A DNA stretch of 64,000 bases, taken from Eledone cirrhosa (taxonomy: Eukaryota). The DNA is taken from the NCBI GenBank assembly GCA_964016885.1, contig OZ024742.1:189534001-189598000 (forward strand). The letters run 5' to 3'. Made by a program: the position numbers and the translations under genes. Position 1 is the first letter of the stretch. Each line of letters opens with the position of its first letter. A model generated the notes under the pieces. That model searched no databases. It had not been told where the DNA came from and saw only the letters and a list, made by a program, of their open reading frames with translations. Shown here piece by piece: positions 52,088 through 58,124 of the stretch.

Positions 52088-54134
52088 ATATATACACATA
52101 CATATATAGTGTAAACAAATTTACATGAAGAAGAATTAAGTACTCACTACCAGTGTAGTGTGAAATATTTGCATATTGGAACTGTAAATATATGAACTAA
52201 CACAGTGTTACTAATAGTTTCATGACACAGTTAAAAGCTCAATCAATCTTTGGACAATATATAACTAACAACATTCCACAACATACAAATAGTTTCCTGC
52301 CATGTACTGAGTTAAGGATAATAGAAGAACTCTCACCAAACCAATTTCACTGCTTATAATTTCTCTTTTTAACCTTTTTGGCACATATTTCTGATGTCAT
52401 ACATTGTAACTTGAAAATTTGAAAGTCCCAAATGCAGAAAATAATTGTAATAACAGTAAGTCACAATGAATTCTTTCTGAGAAAACTAGGTAAATTCCCC
52501 TTAAGAGACTAAAATAATTTACTTAATTTTCTCTTTTACTTATAGTGATCATTTCATATTACAGTCATTTTCAGCAATTGGGACTCATACATTCACATGT
52601 CAAGCTCTTCCAGTGCTTTTCTAATACATAAGTATCCATATTTGAATTTATTAATAAAGGGTTTAGAGGGATTCACTGAAATTATTAATTATTTCATTAT
52701 TAAGATGGTATTTGTAGCATAACTTAATAAGAGGTTCTTATATGAAATGTTGTTGCAAGATTTTAATCTGAACAGAAACACTTTAAGTTAGGGGGTTTTG
52801 TTTCATACAACCATGAGTAGATTTGGGAGGAGTGATATCAGAAGGCTAAATTTGTCAATCCAAGGAAGACAACTTAAATCAACTTAAATAATTTTATCAT
52901 CATGTTATATATTTTGTAACAGATACCATAGAGTCATGGTGCATGACAGGAAACTAGCAGTATCTCCCTCTAGTTGCATCATATGACTACAGGCTGTTTT
53001 GTGGAAGGTCACTAGTACTATATTAACTGAATATTGACTAAGGTTATAAGCTTTTCACGAAATTGCATGAAGTTGCTAGGATATTGGGCTTTCAATAAAA
53101 AAAATGTTGGTTTCAATTCTTAGACCATGTAGCAGATTGTTTCCTTGATTGTTTCCTTGTATTTCATTTCATGTTTCTCATGTTCATCAACTAAAAATGA
53201 GTACCAAATGGAATTTGCTTTCTAGGCAGGGAGAAATCTTGTATTCTCAGTCACTTAATGCTTCATGAAACTTGTGTAAGCTCTGGCCCATCTACAAGCA
53301 TAGATGAAGCATAGATGTGAAAACAATGACTTTCTGATAAATCTTTTAATAAAGATTTATCAGAAATGTATACATTGATTAAACCAATTTATTATTATAT
53401 GAATGTATGATTGTATGCGTGCATCCATGTATGTATATATGTATGTATGTGTGTATGTAAATGTGTTAGTATGAATGTATATATGTATGCCTGCATTCAT
53501 GCATGTATGTATGTATCTATATATACATGTGTTTTGTACATATGTTTGTTTGTATGAGTGTATGTATAGGTGCAGGCATGTGTATATGTCTATGTGACTC
53601 TCAAGAGCATGTTTGAAATATAAAATATACTATTTTATTTCAAAATGAATTTAAAACTAAAAATTCTCAAATTGATTAAGGTTTATTAGTTTATTTATTG
53701 TTCATAATTATTCCAGTTTGTCGTAGTAGAACTTAGAATCTAACCAAAATTCTTAATTATACTAATGTTGGTTGCATAATTTAAACTAAGCTTTAGTTTG
53801 CTTGAGCACTCTTAGTCCAAAGTTCAAATTATTTTTCCTTTTTCACATATGTTAGATTGTCACTTTGATCGTTGATCACCCAGTATTCATATATACATTA
53901 TGAAATATATGCTTTGAATTATGTCAACTTAAGTTTGACAAACTATAGATGTTGCAATGGTCTGTAGTTTCAATTCATGCTTGACTAAAACTATTTCATT
54001 GATTAAACTATGCCTCTTTTTTTCTCTCTCTCTCTCTTCCAATTTAACAGGTTTTAAAAAAGTAATTATGATAATTTTAATGTTAATAATAAAACTGATA
54101 ATGACAATGCAAATAATAATAATGACAATGATAA

Positions 54135-54169
<35 letters not shown>

Positions 54170-54296
54170 TTAATAATAATAATAATAGGTGTGTATTTAT
54201 ATTCTCCCATAAATGAAAACTCTGAACAATTCCAGGGAAAATCCTTTTATAACTTGCCTACTCATGAGTTAAATTTTGTTCTTTGGGTTTAATATA

Positions 54297-54321
54297 AGGA
54301 TCGTCGTCGGGTAGAAGTCAT
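54297..54321 (+). promoter_or_regulatory. Candidate ECS for outer-pore codons 57622-57646 (GDIYPTTIL)
   Basis: aggatcgtcgtcgggtagaagtca is the reverse complement of exon tgacatctacccgacgacgatcct at 23 of 24 positions, including 19 contiguous Watson-Crick pairs. Confidence 0.85.
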
Positions 54322-54881
54322 GGATGGTAGCAAAGAAATTGACCAAAAGATTTATGTCACCTTTCTCAGGGTGATACATTTATCAGTCATGTTTCTTTTC
54401 GCTACCATACATGGGTTATGGGATGAAATTTTTCTCATGATTAGGAAGTTTGTCTCACCTCCACCCGCTAATGTTTGAAATATATATTTAAAAAAATATA
54501 TTTTCTGTTCCTTTTATTTAAATTTGATATCGAATCTTACATTAAAGATGTCATGATAAATATGTAGTTATAAATAATTTGTGTTTATATGTCACTGTTA
54601 AATTTTGCAGAAATTTTAAGATTCTATAAAATGTTACTTCGTCTTCCAGTTACATGTATTTTTTTAAGCCATAAACCTGAGGACTTCTTTAGCTGTTTAT
54701 TTTTTTTTTATTTCCACTTGAAGACATTCTTCCGAATTGATTGTAAAGTTATATTCTACATATTTGAATTTGTATATATACCTACTACATTTCAATACAT
54801 TAATTACATATAAACAAAACATAGCATATATATATAAATATATAAATATAAAAATCTTATATACATATGAACATAGCACTA

Positions 54882-54936
<55 letters not shown>

Positions 54937-55189
54937 CATATATATATATACATATGATATAATATAATATGAATATGTGTATGGGTGCTTCTGTGTGTGT
55001 ATGTGAGAAAGAAAGATAAAAAGGGTAAGAATAAATGTATACAGACTCTACTTATATACACTAACTTCTTCCGAGCAGTCATTAAATCAAATGTACTTTA
55101 GGTGTTACTTTCTACATTATCGGGAAAGAAAAATGAATTGAATATGTTTTAGTCTTCTTAACATTCAAAATATAGTCACAATAGCTTTT

Positions 55190-55210
55190 GAAAACATCAT
55201 TGATGGACCT
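55190..55210 (+). promoter_or_regulatory. Candidate ECS for S5 codons 57473-57493 (GLLMMFL)
   Basis: gaaaacatcattgatggacct pairs with exon aggtctattaatgatgttttt at 21/21 positions (3 G.U wobbles). Confidence 0.75.
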
Positions 55211-55557
55211 TGAGAGGTGATTTACCTTCATCCTCTAAATATGACAAAATACAACCTAAACACTTTCACTTGCCCTTCCAGTCAGCTCCTCCCGCTTTGG
55301 TGCAAGAAAGACAAATGTATGACTTTATTACATTGAATACAATCATTAATCTAGCTTCACTTGAGTGGGAAGGTGTTCCTTATATATATATCTATATATA
55401 TATATATAAGGTCTGAAGATCACCAAATAGATTTAGAGATATATTATCTCCAATAAAGTAATCGGCATTCAGTATGAAACCAGTGGGTAATGTAGTGTAA
55501 TCTCATTACTTTGTAACCATACATTCATATATATATATATATATATAGGTATGTATG

Positions 55558-55589
<32 letters not shown>

Positions 55590-55643
55590 TATATATATAT
55601 ATATGTGTGTGCATATATATGTATATATATATATATGTATATA

Positions 55644-55695
<52 letters not shown>

Positions 55696-56413: not shown

Positions 56414-56461
56414 AGCGTAACAGCTAGCACACCTCTTCATGTACAGCATCCACTACCAATA
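56414..56461 (+). promoter_or_regulatory. Candidate editing-complementary sequence (ECS) for S6 codons 57656-57700
   Basis: Intronic agcgtaacagctagcacacc-tctt-catgtacagcatccactaccaata pairs antiparallel with exon tgttggtagcgtatgttgtatatg-t-ggtgtgctagttattgcgct (about 41 pairs including G.U), with C56421 opposite A57693. Confidence 0.85.
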
Positions 56462-56505
56462 TTTAGTGGCTAAAGCTGGCTGCTATTTAAAAATATATAT
56501 CAAAA

Positions 56506-56521
56506 GCCGTCTCCTACTGTC
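56506..56521 (+). promoter_or_regulatory. Candidate ECS for selectivity-filter codons 57608-57623 (TVGYG)
   Basis: gccgtctcctactgtc pairs with exon gacggtaggatatggt at 15/16 positions (3 G.U, one U.C mismatch); collinear with the 56414-56461 block. Confidence 0.6.
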
Positions 56522-56545
56522 CCTTTGGATGACCCACAAATATTT

Positions 56546-56557
56546 ACTACTACTACT

Positions 56558-56604
<47 letters not shown>

Positions 56605-56730
56605 AACTACTACTACTACAACTACTACTACTGCTACTACTGCTACTACTACTACTACTACTACTACCATCAACAACACTACCTCTACCACTATAACTAC
56701 TATTGCCACTACTACTATTACTACCATCAT

Positions 56731-56772
<42 letters not shown>

Positions 56773-56820
56773 CATTATTACTACTACTACTACTTCTACT
56801 ACTATACTACTACTACTATC
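56546..56820. repeat. (ACT)n microsatellite
   Basis: Direct reading; lies between the candidate ECS cluster and the exon. Confidence 0.95.
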
Positions 56821-57047
56821 AACAGCATATTTTATATATATGCTACTTTGCTTTCAACTGTCTTTCTTCCGAAATTTTTTTCAATACTCCTTTACCCACT
56901 CCTTATCTTGTCAAAGTCATGCTTTGGTGTGAGTAACAACTTCCTATTATTTATTTAAGTCCCTAATCTAGGAGTATCTTTTAAGAGATCCGTTCGTTAA
57001 CCCTGTGTATTTTTTCAGCGTTACCAGAATTTGAAAACATTTTTCAG

Positions 57048-58124
57048 GTCTTGGCCATTGTGTCCATTCTCTTCATTGTCCTGTCTACCGTGGCGCTAAC
57101 ATTAAACACAATTCCTGGGCTCAAAGGTGAAGGAGAGCATGAAGGGGCTGATAACCCACAGCTTGCAATTGTAGAAGCTGTTTGCATTGGATGGTTTACC
57201 TTGGAATATCTGGGACGATTCTGGGCCTCCCCGAATAAGTGGAAGTTTTTCAAAGGACCTTTGAACATTATAGACCTATTGGCAATCATGCCTTATTTCA
57301 TTTCCCTAGGATTGACTGAGACCAACAAGAGTACGACGGAACAGTTCCAAAACGTCCGCAGAGTGGTGCAAATCTTTCGAATAATGAGAATTCTGCGAAT
57401 TCTAAAACTTGCAAGACATTCAACTGGTCTGCAATCCTTAGGGTACACTTTACAGAGAAGTTATAAAGAGCTAGGTCTATTAATGATGTTTTTGGCCATT
57501 GGAATACTCTTATTCTCAAGCCTTGCCTACTTTGCGGAAAAAGACGAACCAGGAACTAAGTACGTTAGTATCCCCGAAACATTCTGGTGGGCTGCCATCA
57601 CTATGACGACGGTAGGATATGGTGACATCTACCCGACGACGATCCTGGGAAAAGTTGTTGGTAGCGTATGTTGTATATGTGGTGTGCTAGTTATTGCGCT
57701 TCCAATTCCAATCATTGTCAATAATTTCGCCGAATTTTATAAAGATCAGATGAGAAGAGAGAAAGCATTAAAACGTAAGGAGGCTCTCGAGCGGGCGAAG
57801 AGGAATGGAAGCATAGTCTCCTTCCACTCCGTCAATCTGAGGGATGCCTTCGCCAAAAGTGTCGACCTGATGGATGTTGCCTCCGAAGTTCCTAGAAACG
57901 ACTGGGATACAAACAGCGTGGAGACGAAATCCATGAGTTCACCACCGCCTTGTGTGATGCGGGGATCCAACCCCAATACACCCAAGTTGAGTGGGCAAGG
58001 AGGAACGACAAACTTCAACTGCAAGGAGAATCAGGAGAACCCCAGCAACACCAACTTGTTGGATATAGATGAGGAGTCTTTGCATCGGATGACGACCCAA
58101 GCTTCAACTGATACATCAATGCAG
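57048..58124 (+). CDS. KCNB (Shab): Kv2/Shab channel exon encoding S1-S6, pore (TVGYGD) and proximal C-terminus
   Basis: Acceptor ttttcag|GTC at 57047/57048 joins in phase 0 to give [18 protein letters not shown]4 is [14 protein letters not shown], the pore is [13 protein letters not shown]6 has the Kv2-type PIP motif, followed by [14 protein letters not shown]. Donor CAG|GTGAGT at 58124/58125; 1077 nt = 359 codons. No further confident exon in the window. Confidence 0.97.

Follow-up and report, generated by a model that had tools for sequence, protein, structure and literature searches.

Intronic blocks antisense to the pore and S6 exon of an octopod Kv2 gene as probable editing-complementary sequences

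What directs ADAR to the particular adenosines that are recoded in cephalopod Kv2 transcripts? The question is raised by a 64,000-nucleotide stretch of Eledone cirrhosa DNA (assembly GCA_964016885.1, contig OZ024742.1, positions 189,534,001 to 189,598,000 of the forward strand; hereafter the window), in which the intron preceding the pore-bearing exon of a Kv2 gene contains four blocks antisense to that exon. Squid Kv2, the subject of Patton et al. in 1997, is a founding example of cephalopod recoding. In 2009, Ingleby et al. gave the structures directing sqKv1.1 and sqKv2 editing as not known (PMC2606942), and introns have been largely ignored in coleoid editing studies (PMC8891338; Moldovan 2022). 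Here, we propose that the Kv2 intron blocks are probably editing-complementary sequences (ECSs) for ADAR, resembling elements e2 and e3 of Drosophila Shaker and having crossing helices. The intronic ECS as a type of element is already well known. An earlier note on this DNA, which had pointed out the blocks, knew of no description of them, and none was found in the literature searched, most subscription papers being outside the reach of that search.

The exon that the blocks face encodes S1–S6 and occupies 57048–58124 (all Kv2 features are on the plus strand and are given in window coordinates). It is bounded by an acceptor AG at 57046–57047 and a donor GT at 58125, in agreement with the limits previously assigned to it. 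By sequence, the gene is an octopod Kv2/Shab, the protein of this exon being 99% identical to Octopus sinensis Kv2 and 95% identical to squid Kv2. A search of the 3.0-Gb genome gave a single full match to the exon, along with two weak partial ones that belong to other Kv genes. The intron that separates it from the T1-domain exon is 45.5 kb long and has its donor GT at 11510.

All four blocks were found at the coordinates claimed for them, antisense to the exon segments claimed as their partners and 1.1–3.3 kb away from them. Block B1 (54297–54321) pairs with 57622–57646 through 23 Watson-Crick pairs, with one A.A mismatch and one terminal G.U, and block B2 (55190–55210) pairs with the S5 codons LGLLMMF at 57473–57493 through 21 contiguous pairs, three of which are G.U. 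Block B3 (56403–56461), which reaches further than first noted, to about 56403/57710, forms with 57656–57710 an imperfect helix of approximately 50 bp (-64.8 kcal/mol). Block B4 (56506–56521) faces the selectivity-filter codons at 57608–57623 (12 Watson-Crick pairs, three G.U and one C.U) and is nested in register with B3, a 9-bp intronic hairpin being predicted by folding between the two (56464–56485). The exon gap between the B3 and B4 partners is mostly occupied by the partner of B1; the B4, B1 and B3 partners together take in 84 of the 93 bases of 57608–57700, most of which the blocks had indeed been said to cover, and the partners of three of the four blocks are concentrated within 100 of the 1077 exon bases. 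Along the intron the blocks run B1, B2, B3, B4, an order not collinear with that of their exon partners. Judged from the coordinates, the B1 helix crosses that of B3, and the B2 helix those of both B3 and B4, so that a fold in which all of them form simultaneously would be pseudoknotted, or else the crossing helices may be alternative folds. Co-folding with the exon gave gains of -41.7 for B3, hairpin and B4 together, -40.8 for B1 and -19.4 for B2, compared with minima of about -16 among random pieces (60 random intron pieces each, with no correction for the search that had found the blocks).

Departures from perfect complementarity had been described as mostly G.U wobbles, which barely holds: 11 of the 21 are G.U, three are A.C and seven are of other kinds. 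The transitions are skewed towards G.U over A.C (11:3, one-sided p 0.029), a value subject to ascertainment bias because the blocks were originally found by allowing G.U. In a genome search that skipped very common words and covered the B3/B4 and B1 regions, 56385–56540 (B3/B4) and 54200–54480 (B1) had one match each; both regions are single copy and lack the multiple copies expected of a transposon or repeat fragment.

The strict null against which the complementarity was judged consisted of 108 tiles of 4 kb, cut from the actual genome and masked, with a mean score of 30.2 and a maximum of 40; the scans took the exon start as 57020 and so included 28 nt of intron, the top matches lying far from there. 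Under this scoring B3 reached 55, B1 54 and B2 41, above every one of the tiles. Across 144 kb of sense strand these blocks rank as the top three strict matches, ahead of a fourth at 37, and all three lie no more than 2.8 kb upstream of the exon. Of 20 control exons scored with their flanks (12 Kv-family and 8 cadherin), none attained 41, the best being 40. In addition, B1 contains a 19-nt exact complement, whereas the tile maximum was 14. B1, B2 and B3 thus show the complementarity above chance that is expected of an ECS, while B4 alone was not significant and fell outside the six best strict matches. Counting Watson-Crick pairs only, the scores were 41 for B3, 55 for B1 and 33 for B2, the last of which was attained by 8 of the 108 tiles; both this and the strict scoring discriminate the blocks from controls. 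In the G.U-tolerant scan of the whole intron, B3 ranked first, B1 second, B4 third and B2 sixth. The 4 kb proximal to the exon came out ahead of 150 exon shuffles at all six ranks (0/150), and in the whole intron B3 alone was unmatched by 25 shuffles. Two candidate extra blocks, at 56082–56130 and about 55968–55984, were rejected: they are A/T-rich, overlap the B3 partner and are at background level (16 and 20 of the 108 tiles as good).

The positions at which Kv2 may be recoded were taken from squid. Between the squid Kv2 protein CAA74748 and the window exon there are 16 differences; after removal of one junction artefact and of seven differences that were either not of the A-to-G type or common to a squid-like genomic open reading frame (ORF), P0277, eight A-to-G-type changes are left (I391V, Q489R, I490V, I496V, Y576C, S587G, I597V and K675R), which we infer to be RNA edits. 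The Y>C and I>V changes recur in a spliced squid-like contig, P0276, while the genomic P0277 has Y and I. The junction artefact, 'Q381R', had at first resembled both an edit and, in Octopus, a hard-wired substitution, and was traced to the splice junction. Three of the eight changes lie within block helices: Y576 in that of B1 (A57631 opposite U54312), and S587 (A57663 opposite U56454) and I597 (A57693 opposite C56421) in that of B3. The A.C mismatch is the geometry that ADAR prefers, and we take I597 to be the position of Kv1.1 I400V. A-C mismatches have also been reported at coleoid editing sites (PMC8891338). With the squid-derived sites, then, a duplex over edited adenosines in a geometry favoured by ADAR, another mark of an ECS, is found here, I597 being the residue opposite C. 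The block footprint holds 3 of the 8 squid changes and 15 of the 227 recodable adenosines (p 0.011). Beneath B2 and B4 there is none of the eight changes, and for I391V and K675R the search turned up no partner that rose above background.

An I>V site of Kv2 that is common to squid, cuttlefish and octopus has been published under the number I579V (PMC5705066, PMC11188811, bioRxiv 10.1101/714394) and would correspond to I597 here. At position 587, the Kv2 proteins of Octopus sinensis, O. vulgaris, O. bimaculoides and Argonauta have Gly, whereas the window (57663) and P0277 encode Ser, which suggests that an editing site has likely been fixed in DNA in the Octopus and Argonauta lineages. Octopus, Argonauta and squid-like Kv2 sequences were retrieved by protein searches, which yielded no additional editing map; the passages available from PMC9068888 and PMC8382921 and the one supplementary file searched for each contained nothing on Kv2 structure, and Kv2 entries were absent from those files.

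Five of the eight squid sites lie outside the blocks, so the blocks cannot be the scaffold for all Kv2 recoding, as had been supposed; the view of them as intronic ECSs draws support from Y576C, S587G and I597V. Three of the remaining sites fall in a predicted exonic structure absent from the earlier note, helix X, which emerged from a scan of the exon against itself. Its 5' arm (57355–57394) carries the S4 sites Q489R, I490V and I496V, and its 3' arm occupies 57501–57538. The predicted helix is more stable than expected (z -3.27, with 1 of 200 shuffles as good) and has pair probabilities of 0.85–1.0; the I490V adenosine lies opposite C57522 within a 2x2 loop, and the partner of B2 is located in the loop of the helix. 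The blocks and helix X together hold 6 of the 8 squid changes and 28 of the 227 recodable adenosines (p 5e-5, helix X having been added post hoc).

Taken as ECSs, the blocks would pair with the exon in unspliced RNA in vivo and direct ADAR to the recoded adenosines, and editing of these sites in E. cirrhosa would depend on them. B3, the hairpin and B4 would constitute one nested multi-helix domain on the S6 and filter codons (S587G and I597V), and B1, from 3.3 kb away, would enter the exon gap between B3 and B4 (Y576C), crossing B3 either as a pseudoknot or as an alternative fold. B2 would pair with S5 inside the loop of helix X, which itself may serve the S4 sites without any intron. A pseudoknot is also the form of the synaptotagmin 1 ECS of Drosophila.

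Several known systems share parts of this arrangement. In Drosophila Shaker, upstream-intron elements e2 and e3 have been described (PMC2606942); as here, several separate elements precede the S6 exon of a Kv gene and each is predicted to lie on different sites, including an S6 I>V. The likeness is one of arrangement, and the two cases differ in that the gene here is Kv2 rather than Kv1 and belongs to another phylum, and in that the Shaker elements are conserved across 12 genomes, compared with one other organism for the Kv2 blocks. The ECS, DCS and hairpin pseudoknot of Drosophila paralytic (para) is likewise a multi-part intronic structure in which a hairpin adjoins an ECS and helices cross (PMC4299485). 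Unlike the Kv2 elements, which lie upstream, span the acceptor and are predicted from sequence, that structure has been dissected by knock-in, and its DCS sequesters the donor. In Drosophila synaptotagmin 1, distinct long-range intronic elements set editing at neighbouring exon sites (PMC5705066), although the gene is a different one and the elements there have been traced across 34 insect species. A coding parallel is offered by insect Shab/Kv2, in which Tyr>Cys and Ser>Gly sites 11 codons apart reproduce the spacing of Y576C and S587G; the I>V of insect Shab is stated to be common to cephalopods, and a pre-mRNA hairpin has been shown for the Ser>Gly site, while the available passages of that paper present no cephalopod structure (PMC10937787).

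Comparison with other organisms bears on B3 and B4. Four were compared over 55790–56544, one of which (organism D) gave an orthologous piece, 56391–56544, that spans both blocks and is nearly identical to the window, with three other letters and eight gap letters. The listed changes comprise one substitution, T56487C, and losses at 56461 (1 nt), 56488, 56493, 56497 (4 nt) and 56502; B3 as far as 56460, the hairpin and B4 are free of them, and five of the six events fall in the 20-nt A/T-rich linker at 56486–56505. A metagenome scan found no cephalopod locus, the best match being of 78–82% identity.

A number of observations weigh against the ECS interpretation. The placement of the changes in organism D is not significant (p 0.21 for B3 and B4, 0.064 with the hairpin); two more mismatches have no position, the upstream flank in that organism, a loose end, also resembles the window, and no compensatory change or covariation was seen in B3/B4 of this organism, the one of the four that covers them. 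Editing in E. cirrhosa would follow by extrapolation from squid and the literature. Permissive scoring does not set the blocks apart: in the unmasked G.U-tolerant scan, the strand-flipped and direct controls reached 81 and 71 compared with 72, the best null tile under G.U-tolerant scoring reached 71 compared with the same 72, and 8 of the 108 tiles had a best score of at least 52. With loop-tolerant nearest-neighbour energies, B3 gave -52.8 kcal/mol, compared with -49.4 and -52.7 in reversed-sequence controls, and strand-flipped and direct controls reached -150.6 and -123.2 kcal/mol within one tract, so that over the whole 45.5-kb intron the blocks were not separable from controls. Because low-complexity or G/U-rich tracts score as high or higher, these two kinds of scan do not discriminate, and permissive energy is no evidence since controls match or exceed B3. 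Four of the five non-cephalopod Kv loci compared score at most 34, but the fifth, a Kv2 locus (L004), holds a 21-bp duplex scoring 45, and the range 41–45 is therefore not unique to the window locus. In addition, introns are not needed in vitro for the editing of squid Na/K-ATPase and of part of sqKv1.1 (PMC2990702, PMC7192619); PMC10278661 likewise describes squid substrates that are edited in the absence of introns, and suggests a missing intron as one reason for unedited sqKv1.1 sites.

Three other explanations have to be considered. The blocks could be functionless leftovers of local inverted duplications of exon DNA, made by template switching or repair and decaying neutrally, and any block of this sort is indeed likely to have arisen by inverted copying; B1 copies the exon almost perfectly, and the lack of covariation in organism D fits this, weak as the cross-species comparison is. 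We nevertheless consider neutral decay unlikely, given that the non-collinear order would require at least two duplication events, that no control exon has a match of 41 or more, that three blocks converge on a small part of the exon and on recoded codons, that the transitions are skewed to G.U and that the listed changes of organism D lie mostly outside the helices. It is similarly improbable that the helices, although real and selected, slow or steer the splicing of the 45.5-kb intron by looping out its 3' splice site, or raise editing generally while exonic structure picks the sites. The acceptor at 57047 lies within the span of every block helix, no squid-derived recoding site falls under B2 or B4, helix X illustrates that exonic structure is able to cover the S4 sites, and in para the DCS, an intronic helix, modulates editing via a splice donor (PMC4299485); B1 and B3, on the other hand, are centred on recoded codons, B3 puts a C opposite I597, and the pore/S6 segment does not fold stably by itself (z -0.39, 65 of 200 shuffles as good).

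That same segment is where an exonic hairpin of the mammalian Kv1.1 type could act with the intron blocks uninvolved, an explanation to which we give very little credence. The stretch 57612–57725, from pore to S6 as in Kv1.1, matches the Rfam model RF00485 (K_chan_RES) with 65 bits, above the gathering score of 51, and the intron-free editing of some squid mRNAs mentioned above would accord with such a signal, which in Kv1.1 is wholly exonic. However, the threshold is also exceeded at 11 of 14 other Kv loci, so that the match tracks coding homology, and by alignment count the consensus hairpin is not formed in the window, 9 of the 24 model pairs being broken or non-standard; nor does the segment fold better than its shuffles.

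If the blocks are ECSs, a broader picture may tentatively be sketched, which we hold to be less probable than its starting point and rather doubtful as a whole: coleoid Kv2 recoding would be programmed by modules, with a pseudoknotted kilobase-scale intron scaffold providing one block for each pore/S6 site and an exonic helix serving S4, and intronic modules would be an overlooked factor of general importance in coleoid recoding, with a weaker set flanking a Kv3-like exon, reached independently of the insect structures on the same codons. The coordinates given here provide base-level, deletable candidates for three recoding sites, together with an exonic helix for three more, and make it testable whether coleoid recoding needs nuclear, pre-splicing structures; the squid substrates assayed in vitro to date were exonic. 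If true, the S4 sites under helix X would be editable in the axon and the pore/S6 sites would not.

The Kv3/Shaw-like exon (L108, G000:C15:5427740-5437739, minus strand) has three imperfect exon-intron duplexes with strict scores of 38, 36 and 33, one located 2.1 kb upstream and reaching turret/S6 codons and two nested 0.9–1.1 kb downstream and reaching the likely donor. Its second- and third-best scores are unsurpassed at their ranks in the control set of 20, and on its sequence the locus is a candidate second ECS system. The best control score of 40 belongs to an 18-bp duplex approximately 3.9 kb downstream of a Kv-like exon (L110, G000:C186). In L004, the 21-bp duplex pairs 2787–2807 with the exon at about 5776–5797 (PETFWWAA codons, which differ from those of the window) from 2.6 kb upstream, with five G.U and no mismatch. 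Its Thr presumably matches a Drosophila Shab editing site, and the duplex is either coincidental, the DNA being G+C-rich, or a convergent element.

The T1-domain coding exon of the gene was located at 10415–11509 by tblastn with Octopus, Argonauta and squid Kv2 proteins and by reading of its junction. By tblastn, no further Kv2 coding exon was found from 58125 to 60 kb beyond the window end; relatives are longer by several hundred residues than the coding exons of the window account for, and either the intron after 58124 is long or the C-terminal exons have diverged. Within the 45.5-kb intron, 20600–23700 holds long imperfect tandem arrays, an ACC-rich part of which can pair, probably by chance, with low-complexity Gly/Ser-rich sequence in the T1 exon (scores 39–45). 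Rfam miRNA matches in (TA)n arrays were far under threshold and were discarded. The same intron also contains a long inverted repeat at 50727–51002 and a 275-codon open frame at 50989–51813, which we take to resemble the endonuclease part of a Penelope-type retroelement.

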